DNA from: Minisyncoccia bacterium
GTDB taxonomy: Bacteria; Patescibacteriota; Minisyncoccia; Phycocordibacterales; Zambryskibacteraceae
Assembly (NCBI GenBank): GCA_049651785.1
Contig: JBASCT010000025.1
Span: 5,563-69,562 of the forward strand
DNA: 64,000 nucleotides
Direction of reading: 5' to 3'
Below, piece after piece: positions 3,310 through 44,871 of the stretch. A program made the position numbers and the translations under genes. The first letter of the stretch is position 1; each line of letters begins with the position of its first letter. Under the pieces are notes generated by a model. The model saw only the letters and a list, made by a program, of their open reading frames with translations, ran no database searches and had not been told where the DNA came from.

Positions 3310-3732
3310 TTATTTCCAAAGACTCAAGATGATTCCCATCACTATAAGAGATACAAGGTAGTGTGAGGCGTTGATATACCAGAGTTTCCAAGGTTTGTTC
3401 TCCCATAAAACCACGCCGAGACTAACGGGGGCGACAAAGCCGAGCCACATCCAAAAACCAGACGATGCGCCAGAAGTCCAGCCGGAAGAGTTCATATAGG
3501 ATGTTGCGAAGACCAAAACGTGCGAGAGGACGTATGCCATGACAAGAGAAGCGACAAATTGTATTGCGTAGGCTTTATTCGCAGCCATCTTCATTCCAGA
3601 CATAACCTCTGGAGCGTAGCCCATCATCGCCATCCACGGTTTTTTAAACAAAAGACCGTACCAGAGAAACCCCACCGCCATACTAGAGACGGCCGCCACA
3701 AGCACCGCCCAGTAATTTATGCCGATGTCCAT
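3310..3732 (-). CDS. Small integral membrane protein, DUF1761-like
   Basis: MDIGINYWAVLVAAVSSMAVGFLWYGLLFKKPW matches the DUF1761 pattern as I recall it. Confidence 0.5.
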   Translation of the reverse strand: MDIGINYWAVLVAAVSSMAVGFLWYGLLFKKPWMAMMGYAPEVMSGMKMAANKAYAIQFVASLVMAYVLSHVLVFATSYMNSSGWTSGASSGFWMWLGFVAPVSLGVVLWENKPWKLWYINASHYLVSLIVMGIILSLWK

Positions 3733-3778
3733 ATTGTTTGATTAATGTCTAAATTCCCATTATTATTCTAGCACCCAT

Positions 3779-3855
3779 TCCGCGATACCCGCCCGAACGT
3801 ACCGTTCGGTACGGGCGGGGCTCAGTCCCGAAGGGAAGCCTTCGGCTTTGGTAGA
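3779..3855 (+). repeat. Pseudo-copy of the tRNA-Asn 5' half, interrupted by a 32-nt GC-rich palindrome and a second hairpin
   Basis: TCCGCGATA, then the palindrome at 3788-3819, then GCTCAGT, then the CCGAAGG-GAAG-CCTTCGG hairpin, then TTGGTAGA. The non-inserted bases equal tRNA-Asn positions 1-24. Confidence 0.7.
3788..3819. repeat. GC-rich palindromic element, family copy 1
   Basis: CCCGCCCGAACGTACCGTTCGGTACGGGCGGG, 32 nt, near-perfect hairpin. Confidence 0.8.
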
Positions 3856-3882
3856 AAAAGTGTTATCGCGGAATTGAATAAT

Positions 3883-3955
3883 TCCGCGATAGCTCAGTTG
3901 GTAGAGCGCCTCCCTGTTAAGGAGGATGTCCCAGGTTCGAGCCCTGGTCGCGGAG
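3883..3955 (+). tRNA. tRNA-Asn(GUU)
   Basis: Cloverleaf with acceptor TCCGCGA/TCGCGGA, anticodon loop CTGTTAA, T-loop TTCGAGC. CCA is not encoded. Confidence 0.9.
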
Positions 3956-4026
3956 CAAGGTTATTTGCCTACGCCTAGGGCATTGTGCTAGTGTCTTGGC
4001 GGGTTAATTCTTTAGAAAGGAGACGC

Positions 4027-30388: not shown

Positions 30389-33300
30389 TGTTTTGGGAGT
30401 TATCTGGCTTCCCGCCCGAACGACCGAAATCATTCGGTCGGGCGGGCTTCTTCAAATCGACATCAAGGGAAAGGCCGCGCAAGTTGTTCAAAAGGACGTT
30501 GAAAGAAGCCGGCAGGTGCGGATCGGGAATTTTTTCACCCTTAACTATGGCGTCGAAGGCGGCCGAGCGGCCGATGATGTCGTCAGATTTAATCGTGAGC
30601 ATTTCGCGGAGGGTGTGGCTTACGCCGTGACCCAAAAGCGCCCAGACTTCCATCTCGCCGAAGCGCTGACCGCCGTTCTGCGCCTTGCCGCCCAAGGGCT
30701 GCTGGGTGATGAGAGAATACGGTCCGATAGAGCGCATGTGGATTTTGTCCTCGACCATGTGGTGAAGTTTGAGGACATACATGTAACCGACGGCAATATC
30801 TTGTTCGAACTCTTCTCCGGTGCGACCGTCAAAGAGTTTCACCTTGCCGTTTTTCTTAAAGCCGGCCTTGGTGAGCTCCTCCTGTATTTCTTCTTCCGAG
30901 GCGCCGGCGAAGGGCGGCACGATGGCCTGATAGTTGAGCGTGTGGGCGGCGAGACCCAAATGCATTTCAAGAATTTGCCCGAGATTCATACGTGAAGGCA
31001 CGCCGAGAGGTGTCAGGATAATATCGATCGGCGTGCCGTCCGCCATGTAAGGCATTTCCTCAACCGGCAGAATTTTTGAAATGACTCCTTTGTTGCCGTG
31101 GCGTCCCGCGAGCTTGTCGCCTACGGAAACATTGCGGAGCTGGGCCACCTGAATATGAATTTGTTTCAAAATGCCCGACTCAAGTTTGTCCCCCTTCTCA
31201 CGGCTGAAGATTTGAACCGAGATAACGCGGCCGCGCTTACCCCCTTCCATGCGCTTTGAAGTATCTTTGACATCGCGCGCTTTCTCGCCGAAAAGCGAGC
31301 GAAGCAGGCGCTCCTCTGGGGTAAGTTGCGACTCGCCCTTCGGCGTAATCTTGCCGACAAGAATATCGCCGGGGCGCACCTCGGCGCCGACGCGGATAAT
31401 GCCGTCCTCGGCCAGATTTTTAAGCTTTGACTCTCCGACATTCGGGATGTCACAGGTAGTCATCTCCGGGCCGAGTTTCGTATCGCGGACATTGACCGTG
31501 AATTCTTCGACGTGAATCGAAGTAAATTTGCTCTTCTCGACCAGGCGCTCGGAAATGATGATGGCGTCTTCGTAATTGGCACCCGACCAGGACATGAAGG
31601 CGACAAGAGCATTTTGTCCCACGGCCATCTGTCCGCCGGCGGAAGATGAGGTGTCGGCGAGGACCTTGCCCTTCTTAACCTTTTGTCCGACTTCAACCGA
31701 GGGTCTCTGGTGGAAGGTCGTGAAGCCGTTCGTCATTGAAAAATTGACCAAAGGAAACTTGTGCGTATTGCCCTTGTTATCCTTGACCTGAATCATCTTG
31801 CCGTCGACATACGAGACTGCGCCGTCAACGGTCGAGACGACCATACGTCCGGTGTCGCGAATAGCCGCCTCCTCGATACCTGTGGCGACAAGCGGCACTT
31901 CGGGCACGATGCAGGGTGTTGCCTGTTTCTGCATGTTCGAACCCATGAGCGCGCGGTTGGCGTCGTCGTGGTTGAGGAAGGGAATCATCGAGGTGGCGAC
32001 GGAAAAAGCCTGATTTGTAGCCACATCCATAAACTGTACCTCTCCCTTAGGGATGAGCTGGGGTCTACCACCAAGGCGAACCTCGACCATGTCGGAGACA
32101 ATCTTGTCCTCCTCCATCACCGTGGCGGCATGGGAGATACTCGAATTTTCTTCCTCCAAGGCGTTCAGGAATTTTATTTCGCCCGTAATTTTTCCGTCCT
32201 TAACTACAGCGTAAGGGGTCTCTATCATGCCGAAGTCGTTGATTCTCGCGTAGCAAGAAAGGCGCAAAATAAGACCGATGTTCGGACCTTCGGGGGTCTG
32301 AATCGGACAGAGTCTGCCGTAGTGCGAAGGATGAACGTCGCGGACTTCGTACCCGGCGCGCGCGCGGTTGAGACCGCCGGGACCGAGAGCCGAGACGGTG
32401 CGCAGATGCTCAAGCTCGGCGAGCGTATTTTCCTGCTGGGCAAATTGGGACAATTGGTTCGTGGTGAAAAATTCTTTGATTCTTGCCTGCAGGGGTTTGG
32501 GCGAGATAAAGTGGACCGGCAGCGTAACGTCGGTGTCGATTGTCGACATTCTGTTCTGGATATTGCGCTTAATCTGCGCCATACCTACGCGGATTTTCTG
32601 TTGGAAAAGCTCACCCACGAGGCGCACCCTCCTTGAGCCGAGGTGGTCTATGTCGTCGGGTTGGGCATCGGGCACTGCGTTCAGGCGCGCCATGTGCGAG
32701 ATAATCGTGACGAAATCGGCAAGCGAGAGCGTGCGGCGATCAATCTCCTTGGCGGAATCCTTGCCGCCGAAACGATTGTTGAATCGGAAGCGTCCGACGC
32801 GGGAGAGATCGTAGCGGTCTTTGCTGAAAATGGAGAGCACGAATTCACGGGCATTGTCGGCCGCGGCGAGATCTCCATCGCGAAGTCGCTTGTGTATCTC
32901 GATTGCTGCCTCGTCGACGGTCGTCGTGTGGTCCTTGGCCAGAGTTTTTTCTAGGTGGCGCTTGGTTTCGGGAACGTTTTCGAACAGAGCAAGAATCTTT
33001 TCATTCGAGATGACGTGGTTTGTGTTGCCCGCCATAAGGAACCGCAAGAGCGTTGTAACCGGGAATTTTCTTTTTCGGTCGATTCTGACGTAGAGAGTGC
33101 CGTCGAGATCGGTCTCAAGCTCGATCCAAGCGCCGCGACCGGGGATGATTTTGGCGCCAAAAGTCTTTTTGCCCCTGAGTTCCTGAGTGGTGAAAGAAAT
33201 ACCGGTTGAGCGGGCAAGCTGAGGAACAATCACCCGCTCAATGCCGGAGATGATGAAGGTGCCGTGGGAAGTCATGAGAGGAAAGTCGGCCATGAAGATT

Positions 33301-35208: not shown

Positions 35209-36105
35209 TTAGAGCGCTTTCTCGGCTTCGATGAATTCATCGAGGCCGCCCTGGAGCACTTTCTCGACATCCCGAATTTCCACATCGGTGCGATGGTCCT
35301 TTACCATCTTGTAAGGGTGAAGAACATAGGAGCGAATTTGGTTCCCCCATTCTATCTGAGTGGTCTTCGAGATATACATGCCTTTTTCTTTCGCCTTGCG
35401 TTCATCCTCTAACTTTCTGTAGAGCTTAGCTTCCAAGAGACGCAGGGCTTTCTCTCTGTTCTGGGCCTGCGAGCGCTCGGACTCGACATGCGCCGAAAGA
35501 TTAGTCGGAAGGTGGACGAGGCGCACCGCCGTCTCGCGTTTATTGACATTCTGGCCGCCCGGGCCGCTTGAGCGCGAGTACTCGGTCTTTAGCTCCTCCG
35601 GCGGGATTTTAACCTCTTCCTGTTTTTCAAATTTCGGAATTACTTCCACCATGGAAAAAGAGGTGTGGCGAAGTGCTTTGGCATTAAAGGGCGAGATGCG
35701 CACCAAGCGGTGAACCCCGGATTCGTTTTTAAGCGTGCCATAGACACCTGCCTGCGCAGGCGGGCTTTTGCCGCTAATTTCCAAAGTGATATTGCGGTAC
35801 CCGCCGTGGTCATTTTCGTTTTTATGGATAACAGAGTAGCGCCACTTATTTTTTTCGAAGAATTTCATATACATCTCAAGGAGAATGCGGGAGAAATCCT
35901 CGGCGTCGTCGCCGCCCGCGCCGGAAAATATTGTCATAACGGCGTCGCCCGGGTCGAATTTCCCTAAGCCCGCTAGCTCTCCCTTGAGCGACTCGTACTC
36001 GCGAAGAGTCGCCTGGGCACGAGTTTTGTCCGCCCAAAATTCTGCAGAAGACATCTCTGTCTCAAGCTCTTCAATCTTTTTCTCTAAGTCTTTTTTATTA
36101 GACAT
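35209..36105 (-). CDS. prfB: Peptide chain release factor 2, uninterrupted with no programmed frameshift
   Basis: SPF and GGQ motifs present. Confidence 0.85.
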   Translation of the reverse strand: MSNKKDLEKKIEELETEMSSAEFWADKTRAQATLREYESLKGELAGLGKFDPGDAVMTIFSGAGGDDAEDFSRILLEMYMKFFEKNKWRYSVIHKNENDHGGYRNITLEISGKSPPAQAGVYGTLKNESGVHRLVRISPFNAKALRHTSFSMVEVIPKFEKQEEVKIPPEELKTEYSRSSGPGGQNVNKRETAVRLVHLPTNLSAHVESERSQAQNREKALRLLEAKLYRKLEDERKAKEKGMYISKTTQIEWGNQIRSYVLHPYKMVKDHRTDVEIRDVEKVLQGGLDEFIEAEKAL

Positions 36106-36106
36106 G

Positions 36107-36179
36107 AGCCGGAGGCGAGAGTCGAACTCGCGACTTACCCCTTACGAAGGGGTTACTCTACCAACTGAGTTACTCCGGC
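36107..36179 (-). tRNA. tRNA-Thr(CGU)
   Basis: GCCGGAG acceptor, anticodon loop TTCGTAA, T-loop TTCGACT. Confidence 0.85.
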
Positions 36180-36182
36180 TTA

Positions 36183-36279
36183 GTGCTCCCCGCCCGTACC
36201 GAACGTCCGCCCGGACGAATACCCATTCGGACGGGTATTCGGTACGTTCGGGCGGGTACCAACTGAGCTAAGGTGGCGC
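36183..36279 (-). repeat. Pseudo-copy of a tRNA 5' half with a 68-nt composite GC-rich palindrome inserted between D-arm positions 21 and 22
   Basis: On the minus strand: GCGCCACCTTAGCTCAGTTGGTA, then the insert at 36189-36256, then GAGCACTAA, then directly tRNA-Thr(CGU). The D-arm is identical to that of the tRNA-Thr(GGU) gene. Confidence 0.65.
36189..36256. repeat. GC-rich palindromic element, composite copy
   Basis: CCCGCCCGAACGTACCG...CGGTACGGGCGGG with an inner TCCGCCCGGACGAATACCC/GGGTATTCG hairpin. Confidence 0.75.
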
Positions 36280-36335
36280 AAGTTAAGATAAGCTCAAGTG
36301 AACTTTAGCAAAAATGAGGGCTTAAGAAAAGATTG

Positions 36336-36656
36336 TCAGGCGAGGCGCTCTTTGAAAAAAGAGAACGTGAAAACGGTTGCGTTCTTGACGAAAAGAAGGG
36401 CGGTGATGAGGGCGAGGATAAAAATGCTTTTAACCAAAATATCAGTGTGCGAGAAGGCCATGACAAGATAGCTGTAAAAGTCTCCCGAGGCGAGCATGTT
36501 GGCCACGACGCTCGGCACGGAGACGAAGAAAAGAAGAATGACCGCAAAAATAAGAAAGAGCACCACCTCGGCGATAAGGGGACTTCTGAACTTGCGCGTA
36601 AGATACGCGAGGTAGACGCCGAACATTATTCTACTTTTCATATTTATTAGTTTCAT
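36336..36656 (-). CDS. Small membrane protein, candidate anti-sigma factor (inference from context)
   Basis: Three TM helices. ATGA overlap with the ECF sigma gene upstream. Confidence 0.4.
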   Translation of the reverse strand: MKLINMKSRIMFGVYLAYLTRKFRSPLIAEVVLFLIFAVILLFFVSVPSVVANMLASGDFYSYLVMAFSHTDILVKSIFILALITALLFVKNATVFTFSFFKERLA

Positions 36657-37590: not shown

Positions 37591-38184
37591 TTACAATGAG
37601 GGAAAGTTTTCAATCAGACTATCAAACATTTTTTTAAGTTTAGTGTTATTAAAATAAACAGTTAAAACGCCATATTGATTTTTATTCCTATAACTTCCTG
37701 TCCCGCGAGACGGTGTAATTATAATCTTCTGAAATTGTGATTTTCTTACGCCAAGCTTATTCATCCAAAATCTCTGAGCTGCCACAGGAGAAATGTCAGA
37801 AAATATTTGGAGTCCAAATTTTAACTTATCTTTATCTATTCCATATATTTTATTTAAAAACGTCATATAGGCCATTATGAGTCTCGGATCAACATTGCCT
37901 AATCTTATTGAGTTTTTGTTTCTTTTGTTCCCTTCTCCCCAGAATAAGCCTATACCTAGCCCAAAAAGTTGCCATTCATCCTTAGTTTTTGGTGGTTTGA
38001 AAATAAAGGGATCGCCTTTTGGATTATATCTAAGGTATGTGGCGTCTGATATAGATCTTTTGGGGATTTTGTATTTAGAAATCCAATAATTTATTTTGTT
38101 TTGAGAAACTCCTGTTTTCCTAGCTATTTCTGCAACAGACAACTGTTTTTTTAAATACCATCTCCTTAGCTTACTTTCATTCAT
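37591..38184 (-). CDS. Putative freestanding homing endonuclease (LAGLIDADG-like GLFWGEGN motif) with an N-terminal HTH
   Basis: About 33% GC against about 50% for the genome. HTH LSVAEIARKTGVSQ. Immediately upstream of the intron-containing tRNA. Confidence 0.4.
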   Translation of the reverse strand: MNESKLRRWYLKKQLSVAEIARKTGVSQNKINYWISKYKIPKRSISDATYLRYNPKGDPFIFKPPKTKDEWQLFGLGIGLFWGEGNKRNKNSIRLGNVDPRLIMAYMTFLNKIYGIDKDKLKFGLQIFSDISPVAAQRFWMNKLGVRKSQFQKIIITPSRGTGSYRNKNQYGVLTVYFNNTKLKKMFDSLIENFPSL

Positions 38185-38229
38185 TAGTAGAATTATACCA
38201 TATAAGTATATTACTCTACCGATAGAGTT

Positions 38230-39011: not shown

Positions 39012-39043
39012 CCCGCCCGTACCGAACGGTACGTTCGGGCGGG
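39012..39043. repeat. GC-rich palindromic element copy, identical to the tRNA-Asn copy
   Basis: CCCGCCCGAACGTACCGTTCGGTACGGGCGGG. Confidence 0.8.
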
Positions 39044-44305: not shown

Positions 44306-44871
44306 GGCCAGTTTAAAATATTTTCCCGCGCCTGGAACTCTTGGTTTGTAGAGCCGTGCATCCAGTTAATGGTGACCAGAACGGAAATTTCTTTGGCATC
44401 AACTTGAGTGATAATAATTTCGCGTCGAAATTTCGTCTCGCTCCAAGCCCCGTTGTGTCCATAGAAAAGATTGGTGGCGTCCTGACGAAGCAAGGGGCAA
44501 GACTCGATGGCGCTGCAACGCGTCGGCACAGTCGAGTTTATCGGGTCAACAATGCAGGCATTACCGAACCAGCAGGGGTCATTAATGTTTGAGGCAATGC
44601 CCGTAAGCCAGTTCCTGTTATTGAGCGCGTTCTCGTCGCGCATGTTTCGGATAAATTCGAACCCCTCTTGAGCAAGGTAAAATGCGGTTATCTGGTCGCG
44701 TGAAAAAGTGTAGGACGAAATCGCGGTCCTAACAGCGCTTGAAACTCCTGTAATGGCCGTGATGAGAATCACGATAGCGACTAGGCTTTCGACGAGAGAG
44801 AATCCCCGCCCGAACGACTTTCGTCGTTCTGTCGGGCGGGCGTTTTGCTTTGTGTGTGTTTCTTTTGTCAT
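44302..44871 (-). CDS. Pseudopilin (PilV/GspI-like) with an unusually long 29-aa leader containing a palindromic-element insertion
   Basis: ...RRKSFGRG|FSLVESLVAIVILIT. Start placed at the internal Met (MTKETH), ATGA-coupled to the upstream gene. Confidence 0.6.
   Translation of the reverse strand: MTKETHTKQNARPTERRKSFGRGFSLVESLVAIVILITAITGVSSAVRTAISSYTFSRDQITAFYLAQEGFEFIRNMRDENALNNRNWLTGIASNINDPCWFGNACIVDPINSTVPTRCSAIESCPLLRQDATNLFYGHNGAWSETKFRREIIITQVDAKEISVLVTINWMHGSTNQEFQARENILNWP
44805..44840. repeat. GC-rich palindromic element copy, 36 nt, in frame within the prepilin leader coding region
   Basis: CCCGCCCGAACGACTTTCGTCGTTCTGTCGGGCGGG. It encodes ARPTERRKSFGR. Confidence 0.75.

Follow-up and report, generated by a model that had tools for sequence, protein, structure and literature searches.

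In the 64,000-nt stretch analysed here (the window; contig JBASCT010000025.1 of a Minisyncoccia bacterium), a tRNA fragment interrupted by a palindrome lies at positions 36183-36279, on the minus strand, just before an intact tRNA-Thr(CGU) gene and prfB. We consider it likely that this fragment is what remains of the resident tRNA-Thr(CGU), a stump left when a foreign allele overwrote the gene, and that it represents the relic of a nuclease cassette which overwrites tRNA genes.

When read on the minus strand towards prfB, the locus consists of a GC leader, tRNA nucleotides 1-21, a 68-nt insert, nucleotides 22-27, a TAA triplet, tRNA-Thr(CGU) and prfB (Table 1). These junctions were read directly from the sequences; the MAFFT alignment of the stump with the intact tRNA was unreliable. 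An earlier note, made from the sequence alone, had described a tRNA 5' fragment bearing a 68-nt palindrome and joined head-to-tail to tRNA-Thr(CGU). Both observations were confirmed: on the minus strand the insertion is found exactly between nucleotides 21 and 22, and the neighbouring gene was recognized as an intact tRNA by ARAGORN and Rfam. The same note had counted this fragment as the third in the window, but it is one of four, the others standing before tRNA-Asn, tRNA-Asp and tRNA-Ser. The covariance-model check that it had proposed went the way it expected: no family was matched by the fragment in Rfam, at the gathering threshold or at E <= 1, so that it does not score as a complete tRNA. 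In addition, no tRNA was called by ARAGORN at 36183-36279. Only nucleotides 1-27 are present, and no complete cloverleaf can be formed, the anticodon arm, the T arm and the 3' acceptor strand being missing.

Table 1. Coordinates, in window numbering, of the fragment, its sister elements and the neighbouring features.
Feature	Position	Strand	Remark
Native upstream flank of the resident tRNA-Thr(CGU)	36280-36340	minus	ends ...cttatcttaactt; now upstream of the stump
Stump part 1: leader GC and tRNA nt 1-21, GCCACCTTAGCTCAGTTGGTA	36279-36257 (nt 1-21: 36277-36257)	minus	matches relatives' tRNA-Thr(CGT)
68-nt composite GC-rich palindrome, between tRNA nt 21 and 22	36256-36189	minus	from sequence and folds
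Stump part 2: GAGCAC, tRNA nt 22-27, stump end	36188-36183	minus	from comparison with L122
TAA junction	36182-36180	minus	from sequence
Intact tRNA-Thr(CGU), GCCGGAGTAACTC...CTCCGGCTC	36179-36106	minus	ARAGORN; Rfam tRNA, 67.8 bits
First 87 nt of prfB	36105-36019	minus	ATG at 36105, immediately after the tRNA
tRNA-Thr(GGU)	37566-37311	minus	183-nt intron (37530-37348) after anticodon nt 36
197-aa open reading frame	37591-38184	minus	lies between the NUDIX gene and tRNA-Thr(GGU); an insertion when compared with L123 and L125
tRNA-Asp 5' stump	39052-38962	minus	GCGGTCATA, 32-mer (39043-39012), GCTCAACTGGTTA, 28-mer (38998-38971), GAGCACT
79-aa GIY-YIG open reading frame	38958-38719	minus	between Asp stump and tRNA-Asp; PF01541, E = 7.5e-13
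Intact tRNA-Asp	38728-38654	minus	nt 8-10, TAG, form the stop codon of the GIY-YIG frame
tRNA-Asn 5' stump	3778-3873	plus	TTCCGCGATA, 32-mer (3788-3819), GCTCAGT, 22-nt hairpin, TGGTAGA, then inverted copy TATCGCGGAA
Intact tRNA-Asn	3883-3956	plus	
tRNA-Ser 5' stump	63347-63286	minus	GGAGAC, 36-nt palindrome (63341-63306), CGTGGCTGA, then fold-back aacTCAGCCAC
Intact tRNA-Ser	63255-63168	minus	

By the source names attached to its prfB and GIY-YIG homologues, the organism is a Patescibacterium (Minisyncoccia/Parcubacteria, near Zambryskibacteria). The contigs encoding the closest prfB proteins were taken as relatives. In terms of prfB protein, they are 93% (L122 and L172), 87% (L171), 86% (L125) and 84% (L123 and L124) identical to the window. 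As far as the contigs reach, all are syntenic with it, in the order sigma factor, small membrane protein, tRNA-Thr(CGT), prfB, rpsP, KH protein, trmD and rpoB. In every relative, the gene before prfB is an ordinary uninterrupted tRNA-Thr(CGT) of the GCCACCT type, starting with GCCACCTTAGCTCAGTTGGTAGAGCA, with neither stump nor palindrome; the L172 contig holds only the 3' part of this gene. The fragment is thus absent at the conserved site from all six relatives and present in the window and in two further contigs, L164 and L165.

Once the palindrome is removed, the fragment is identical to the L122 tRNA-Thr(CGT) at 29/29 bases, the two leader bases included, and its first part also matches the tRNA-Thr(CGT) genes of L125, L123, L124 and L171. 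Furthermore, the 60 nt upstream of the fragment are identical in L122, and L125 and L123 retain part of one block of this flank, TTTTTGCTAAAGT..CTTGAGCTTAT. At the position where the stump ends, L122 reads GGTAGAGCAC/GGCTTTCG. The 29/29 match and the identical flank point to the stump of a resident Thr(CGU) rather than of a gene resembling Thr(GGU). On the basis of this comparison, the fragment is best described as the 5' stump (nucleotides 1-27) of the ancestral tRNA-Thr(CGU), still standing on its own flank.

The intact tRNA which follows differs from the stump at 7/27 positions, and its allele was not present in the five closest relatives. On either side of the locus, the window and L122 share about 93-94% of their DNA positions. 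Nevertheless, prfB nucleotides 1-87 were only 61% identical to L122 (53/87), versus 91.9% over the remaining gene. By the maximum chi-square method, the break in prfB falls at nucleotide 87 (binomial P = 2e-15), and no such identity step was observed when the prfB genes of L122 and L172 were compared. This step indicates that the replaced segment, which begins at tRNA nucleotide 28, reaches prfB nucleotide 87, the tRNA allele and the start of prfB having been replaced together. Its right junction was formed by homologous recombination inside prfB, and its left junction, at tRNA nucleotides 27/28, is a join without homology.

The replaced prfB tract is closest to the more distant L123 (80.5%). 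By scanning metagenomes with the 5' half of the incoming tRNA, 14 contigs were recovered, in most of which the allele agrees with the window at 72-74/74 positions. The intact tRNA of the window is 74/74 identical to that of L156 and 72-73/74 identical to those of L152, L157, L162, L164 and L165, and in L152, L157, L162 and L163 the incoming allele stands directly before prfB with no extra gene. When a donor was sought among the 14 contigs, no identical prfB start was found, the best matching at 60/87. A second prfB patch of low identity to L122 was noted at nucleotides 300-360 (about 35806-35746, minus strand; 67% versus about 95% around it), which could be another small recombination tract.

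Evidence on the nature of the incoming DNA was provided by L164 and L165. In L165, the sigma-factor and membrane-protein genes are followed by GCCACCCTA, a palindrome, GCTCAGTTGGTA, a second palindrome, GAGCAC, 15 nt, an open reading frame (ORF), the tRNA and prfB. The ORF, placed between the stump and the incoming tRNA allele, encodes a 77-aa GIY-YIG protein. The arrangement of L164 is the same as far as the tRNA; the GIY-YIG ORFs of the two contigs are 77-78 aa long, and their stumps carry palindromes at nucleotides 9/10 and 21/22. The window, L164 and L165 share the exact base at which the stump ends (GAGCAC).

At the Thr locus of the window no endonuclease ORF is present, but only TAA; such an ORF is found in L164, in L165 and at the tRNA-Asp of the window. 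In L164, the GIY-YIG ORF ends with ..agtTAA followed by GCCGGAG, and the window reads GAGCAC, TAA, GCCGGAG. Similarly, in L153, L156 and L160 an HNH-like ORF (..NLRLICPNCDSLLPTFSALNKGRGRE..) ends ..TAA before GCCGGAG and abuts the same tRNA allele. As both GIY-YIG and HNH-like ORFs abut this allele, two nuclease classes use the same position before it. Contigs without an ORF abutting this tRNA show other bases in place of TAA (ctg, aag, ctt). The TAA of the window would then be a stop codon left from a deleted endonuclease ORF, which, for three nucleotides only, is supportive and not decisive. Together with the shared stump end, it makes an L164/L165-type cassette with its ORF deleted the simplest reading of the Thr locus.

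An intact cassette is found at tRNA-Asp, 2.8 kb from the Thr(CGU) fragment. There, the stump lies on its native upstream flank, with plain tRNA-Asp at this place in L123 and L125. To this example five GIY-YIG homologues were added (L166-L170), which were chosen solely for their long contigs. All five showed the same order: a tRNA 5' stump with a CCCGCCCG-type palindrome at nucleotides 9/10, 13/14 or 21/22, a spacer of 15-35 nt, the ORF and an intact tRNA (Asp, Phe, Ile, Lys and Phe, respectively). Like the ORF at the tRNA-Asp of the window, these five have no stop codon of their own; it is supplied as TAG by nucleotides 8-10 of the tRNA, and in the L165 cassette as TAA. Cleavage of such a co-transcript by RNase P could leave a non-stop mRNA and limit the amount of nuclease. 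L169 contains in addition an ORF-less stump before a tRNA-Ile of different sequence, the same state as that of the Thr locus. The stump-ORF-tRNA architecture is the rule for this GIY-YIG family. It also occurs in Bdellovibrionales, Ignavibacteriales, Bacteroidota and one gammaproteobacterial metagenome-assembled genome (MAG).

Two regularities were observed across these loci. In L034, L168, L169 (tRNA-Ile), L164, L165 and at the Thr locus of the window, acceptor positions distinguish the stump from the intact tRNA, which indicates that the cassette brings its own tRNA allele. Moreover, the stump ends cluster at nucleotides 22-30 in many unrelated loci, all adjoining GIY-YIG genes; some end at nucleotides 45-48.

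For the GIY-YIG protein encoded at tRNA-Asp, at least 109 homologues were recovered, about 79 aa long and 60-76% identical, all from Patescibacteria-type sources. The catalytic-type residues Y5, Y15, R24, H29 and E61 are invariant in 38 homologues. An AlphaFold model of the 79-aa protein was obtained with high confidence (predicted local distance difference test score, 91.8). Among solved structures, it is best matched by the UPF0213 proteins BH0048 and EF2693 (1zg2, 1ywl) and by Slx1 on branched DNA (6seh_C, template modeling score 0.67), followed by the UvrC GIY-YIG domain; NCBIfam holds no model for the ORF. On account of the invariant residues and of this confidently modelled fold, the protein looks functional. 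As it has a GIY-YIG fold in which the Tyr, Tyr, Arg, His and Glu are conserved, and lacks accessory domains, the ORF belongs to the minimal Slx1-like clade and not to the Seg/I-TevI type. Prokaryotic Slx1-like proteins are minimal stand-alone domains, one of which is fused to a tRNA Gm18 methyltransferase (PMC1564403).

Within the window, 4 of the 7 tRNA genes (Asn, Thr(CGU), Asp and Ser) are preceded by a palindrome-interrupted tRNA 5' fragment. The stumps before tRNA-Asn, tRNA-Asp and tRNA-Ser do not differ in sequence from the tRNA that they precede, and no ORF accompanies those of Asn and Ser. The ends of the Asn stump (3778-3787 and 3864-3873), TTCCGCGATA and TATCGCGGAA, form a perfect 10-nt inverted repeat which extends beyond acceptor-stem pairing, and the Ser stump ends at 63304-63286 with the fold-back GTGGCTGA-aac-TCAGCCAC. 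Such inverted copies may have been left when a break was repaired by way of a hairpin or fold-back. A D-arm-like sequence at 38211-38229, AACTCTATCGGTAGAGTAA, was considered as a fifth stump and rejected, its first 8 nt being native spacer shared with L123 and the remainder belonging to the inserted element of the 197-aa ORF.

The 68-nt insert is itself composite. Its outer parts are the 17 nt CCCGCCCGAACGTACCG (36256-36240) and the 15 nt TTCGGTACGGGCGGG (36203-36189) of a 32-mer, in whose loop a 36-nt double hairpin (36239-36204) is nested, and no target duplication accompanies it. As DNA, the insert forms a long nested hairpin of -23.2 kcal/mol (z = -3.5; 0/200 shuffles as good), and the RNA fold of the 191-nt region around the fragment gave z = -4.2. 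The 32-mer is found intact at 3788-3819 and 39012-39043. Altogether seven copies of the palindrome family were counted in the 64 kb, five of which lie in the four stumps; at Thr and Asp the corresponding sites are empty in the relatives.

When palindrome ends were scanned in one genome per species, at least 120 loci were obtained. At least 97 copies occur in low-GC loci of other genomes, many with the identical 32-mer. The hosts include several Patescibacteria classes, Bdellovibrionales, Ignavibacteriales, one gammaproteobacterial MAG and Bacteroidota, among them the cultured isolates Pseudozobellia, Zeaxanthinibacter, Luteirhabdus and Agriterribacter. At least 14 of the 97 copies reside in partial tRNA copies beside an intact tRNA; at several loci (L034, L037, L038, L062, L068, L020) a GIY-YIG ORF lies between the two, and in L039, L062, L068 and L084 the stumps are 3' parts downstream of the tRNA. 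Palindromes were found in both orientations and without target duplication, preferentially at TA^GCTC (nucleotides 9/10) and TA^GAGC (nucleotides 21/22), but also in anticodon loops and T loops. In L013, L075, L099, L119 and L169, one palindrome sits within the loop of another, and the 68-mer is built identically. With near-identical copies at unrelated sites and empty sites in relatives, the family resembles REP- or MITE-like mobile palindromes. The 68-nt insert is a separate small mobile palindrome, which inserts exactly, in either orientation and also into loops, including those of its own kind.

The GIY-YIG gene was the only recurrent neighbour of the palindromes; no systematic transposase scan of the window was made. 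Phages as a vector were not supported by scans of viral contigs: the palindrome pattern occurred in 24 of 2.9 million, mostly as high-GC chance matches (L130 and L144 look genuine), and no relatives of the GIY-YIG protein were found among these contigs.

A few further copies deserve mention. Two free copies in the window (30411-30446 and 44805-44840) are in frame with coding sequence: rpoB has one among its final 22 codons (..PARPNDFGRSGG..), and a type-IV-pilin-like ORF has one immediately ahead of its GFSLVE prepilin motif (..ARPTERRKSFGRG..). In L155, L158 and L161, the same tRNA-Thr(CGT) allele as the incoming one lies inside a hairpin loop (GCCCCGTTAGA, tRNA, ACGGGGT), and this hairpin itself interrupts another tRNA-like stump (GCCGATGTAGCTCAGCTT..GAAGTAGAGTAA). 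A near full-length tRNA-Val(CAC)-like copy with palindromes in its D-loop stands beside an intact tRNA-Val(GAC) in Kerfeldbacteria (L045, CP181398). Peribacter (L068) has an intact tRNA and after it a GIY-YIG ORF; downstream of this tRNA stands the 3' stump of another tRNA-Thr(CGT) allele, its anticodon loop interrupted by a palindrome.

The truncation at nucleotide 27, the replacement by a foreign tRNA with 87 nt of prfB and the same junction geometry with a GIY-YIG gene elsewhere are observed. DNA from another Patescibacterium, bearing a different tRNA-Thr(CGU) allele and prfB start, took the place of the segment from tRNA nucleotide 28 to prfB nucleotide 87. We propose that it was most likely a cassette as in L164, L165 and the tRNA-Asp locus, with stump, palindrome, a gene for an Slx1-like GIY-YIG nuclease of roughly 79 aa and a complete tRNA, and that such cassettes spread in the way of free-standing homing endonucleases. 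Their nuclease would break a naive tRNA gene near nucleotides 22-30, a cleavage that we infer, and repair would copy the nuclease gene and the linked tRNA allele from the invaded chromosome. The resident 5' part would survive as a stump, which could then act as left homology arm when the cassette spreads again. A later deletion at the Thr locus would have removed the nuclease ORF apart from its TAA. Palindromes would persist in stumps because their insertion into the working tRNA copy would inactivate it, which would be lethal; they may also stabilise the cassette by breaking a direct repeat that could otherwise delete it. Stump ends at nucleotides 22-30 and 45-48, both near the cloverleaf junction, would suit a structure-selective Slx1-like enzyme. 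A wider proposal is put forward only tentatively, and we regard it as rather doubtful: that of a self-propagating cross-phylum system, in which an 80-aa Slx1-like nuclease without a DNA-binding domain would overwrite tRNA alleles with a linked one, find tRNA genes by the cloverleaf or cruciform junction (about nucleotide 26) and/or by the palindromes, and mobilise the palindromes as non-autonomous partners, in the manner proposed for REP-associated tyrosine transposases (RAYT) and repetitive extragenic palindromes (REP), its dose being limited by RNase P removing the stop codon.

Several observations weigh against the relic of a nuclease cassette. The case for a deleted ORF is built on 3 nt and a shared stump end, the 79-aa GIY-YIG domain has no DNA-binding domain, and the intact tRNA-Asp is identical to the naive alleles of the relatives, with no visible immunity. 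The best donor match, 74/74 over the tRNA, is only 69% over the prfB tract. In addition, an identical scar could arise with no nuclease at all, if DNA that had been taken up were integrated by one-sided homology-facilitated illegitimate recombination. A replacement of this kind, using homology in prfB and an illegitimate join inside the tRNA, with the palindrome arriving later by chance, would agree with the mosaic prfB, the non-homologous left junction and the lack of a nuclease ORF at the Thr locus. It nevertheless seems improbable to us, for the stump end is identical to that of L164 and L165, where a GIY-YIG ORF follows, stump ends cluster at nucleotides 22-30 beside GIY-YIG genes in unrelated loci, and the TAA junction also fits a lost ORF. 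A local tandem duplication of tRNA-Thr(CGU), whose upstream copy would have decayed by palindrome insertion and deletion, recalls the Asn, Asp and Ser loci, where the stump equals the neighbouring tRNA. However, the two Thr copies are different alleles, the prfB start is foreign as well, and the same allele difference is met in L034, L168 and L169, which makes a duplication very unlikely.

The earlier note had likened the fragment to the intron-containing tRNA-Thr(GGU) gene 1.3 kb away, rather than to the adjacent Thr(CGU), and had suggested a lost or recombined Thr isoacceptor. It was right about the adjacent gene, which is identical to the fragment at only 20/27 positions, and the likeness to Thr(GGU) is genuine, with 26/29 identical positions including the D-arm and the two leader bases. 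As an origin, however, Thr(GGU) gives way to the orthologous tRNA-Thr(CGU) of the relatives, which matches at 29/29 and shares the flank; moreover, its acceptor strand reads GCCAAGA against GCCACCT in the fragment. Recombination was involved, but no isoacceptor is missing, since the relatives carry exactly one Thr(CGT) and one Thr(GGT) in the region; the resident Thr(CGU) was instead overwritten by another allele of the same tRNA. The remnant of a lost or recombined isoacceptor related to Thr(GGU) is therefore a most improbable origin. The concern, also expressed in that note, that the similarity might be limited to a generic D-arm is removed by the 29/29 match, in which the acceptor strand GCCACCT and the two leader bases are included. 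A functional RNA, be it a split-tRNA half, a tRNA whose D-loop holds an intron or a regulatory leader that mimics tRNA, could draw on the very stable fold and on probable transcription from the native tRNA promoter. It is hardly credible for a fragment lacking the anticodon arm, T arm and 3' acceptor strand, matching no Rfam family even at E <= 1 and absent from five close relatives; the palindromes vary in orientation and position across loci, so that no RNA structure is conserved. Finally, palindromes can mislead assemblers, but a Logan contig from a separate assembly (SRR28011868, L001) agrees with the window at 100% of positions over 6 kb and the same architecture is present in the independent samples L164 and L165, which leaves an assembly artefact or chimeric contig with a negligible probability.

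As for its present state, the fragment, in our reading a stump of the resident tRNA, probably does no more than contribute to the 5' leader when the replacement tRNA is transcribed. The upstream flank (36280-36340) probably holds the promoter of the resident gene, although a scan of 36050-36420 with a simple sigma-70 consensus gave no site. No intrinsic terminator was found in the same interval, and the hairpin, which no T run follows, is not a terminator.

Integrase-borne islands and prophages use tRNA genes as integration sites and bring a tRNA segment that substitutes for the displaced one. The cassette resembles them by the partial tRNA copy at one end of the insert and by the intact tRNA gene that is kept. 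It departs from them in that the 5' and not the 3' part of the tRNA is duplicated, the whole tRNA allele can be replaced and the insert measures about 240 nt, or 3 nt at the Thr locus; there is no integrase. In the window, the tRNA part kept at the Thr locus is likewise not the one expected of an integrase att site, and no recombinase ORF was found within 33.5-40.5 kb.

Split tRNA genes and non-canonical tRNA introns are known in archaea. The fragment looks similar in being a tRNA "half" with a D-arm insertion, but it comes from a bacterium, has no partner 3' half and is absent from close relatives; by visual check only, no bulge-helix-bulge motif was evident at the fragment.

Short mobile palindromes include REP and bacterial interspersed mosaic elements with their RAYT transposases, the Rickettsia palindromic elements, the Correia elements of Neisseria and the GC clusters of yeast mitochondria (review PMC3184786). 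The palindromes described here are likewise short, GC-rich, multi-copy hairpins, sometimes nested and sometimes in frame in genes. The in-frame copies in the window, at the 3' end of rpoB and in the pilin-like leader, recall the Rickettsia elements in particular. In contrast to REP-type palindromes, the 32-mer is identical across phyla, is concentrated in tRNA stumps at TA^GCTC and TA^GAGC and makes no target duplication.

Group I introns are known in tRNA genes of Patescibacteria (PMC13011429). They share with the palindrome the character of selfish insertions in tRNA genes of this phylum, and one probably lies 1.3 kb off in tRNA-Thr(GGU); unlike these introns, which are spliced out of the anticodon loop of working genes, the palindrome resides in a dead 5' fragment and is not spliced.

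The nearest parallel to the spread of the cassette is offered by the T-even phages, with their free-standing homing endonucleases and "intronless homing", the GIY-YIG enzyme SegB of T4 being encoded in a tRNA gene cluster (PMC2330249; review PMC2988022). In both systems a GIY-YIG gene stands by tRNA genes, is patchy among close relatives and is accompanied by co-converted flanking markers, here the tRNA allele and 87 nt of prfB. The present system differs by its location in a cellular chromosome, by a 79-aa domain of Slx1/UPF0213 type in place of a Seg or I-TevI-type enzyme with a DNA-binding domain, by the 5' target stump left behind, by the ORF stop codon borrowed from the tRNA and by the palindromes in the stump; cleavage is here deduced. 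The literature retrieved on the palindrome, on GIY-YIG proteins with tRNA, on UPF0213/YhbQ and on GC-rich mobile palindromes contained no description of the cassette, the stumps or the palindrome. The cassette is widespread and apparently undescribed.

If the proposed overwriting is correct, tRNA genes of Patescibacteria, and apparently also of Bacteroidota, Bdellovibrionales and Ignavibacteriales, would be overwritten horizontally, allele by allele, which would affect tRNA-based phylogeny and explain odd "pseudo-tRNA" calls and missed genes. The roughly 80-aa UPF0213-like GIY-YIG family, to which no function is assigned, would gain a testable role and a candidate substrate. A nuclease of this size would be unusually small for a targeting enzyme, should it recognise the structure of tRNA genes. 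With its 32 nt identical across phyla and its exact, often in-frame insertion, the palindrome is itself a very small mobile DNA.

Two neighbouring features were also recorded. The tRNA-Thr(GGU) gene, intronless in L123 and L125, has an intron for which no Rfam match was obtained at the gathering threshold or at E <= 1. "Divergent group I introns" have been mentioned for tRNA-Thr of Patescibacteria (PMC13011429), and this intron is probably one of them. A clearly related intron occurs in the tRNA-Thr(GGT) of L034 (about 3410-3780), and that of the window contains GCCCGAACGACTGA, a sequence shared with one palindrome variant. The 197-aa ORF next to this gene found no match among PDB sequences; it gave N-terminal helix-turn-helix matches only, and contains a motif, GLGIGLFWGEGN, that is LAGLIDADG-like in look. 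This ORF may encode one more homing endonuclease of the free-standing kind next to a tRNA gene.

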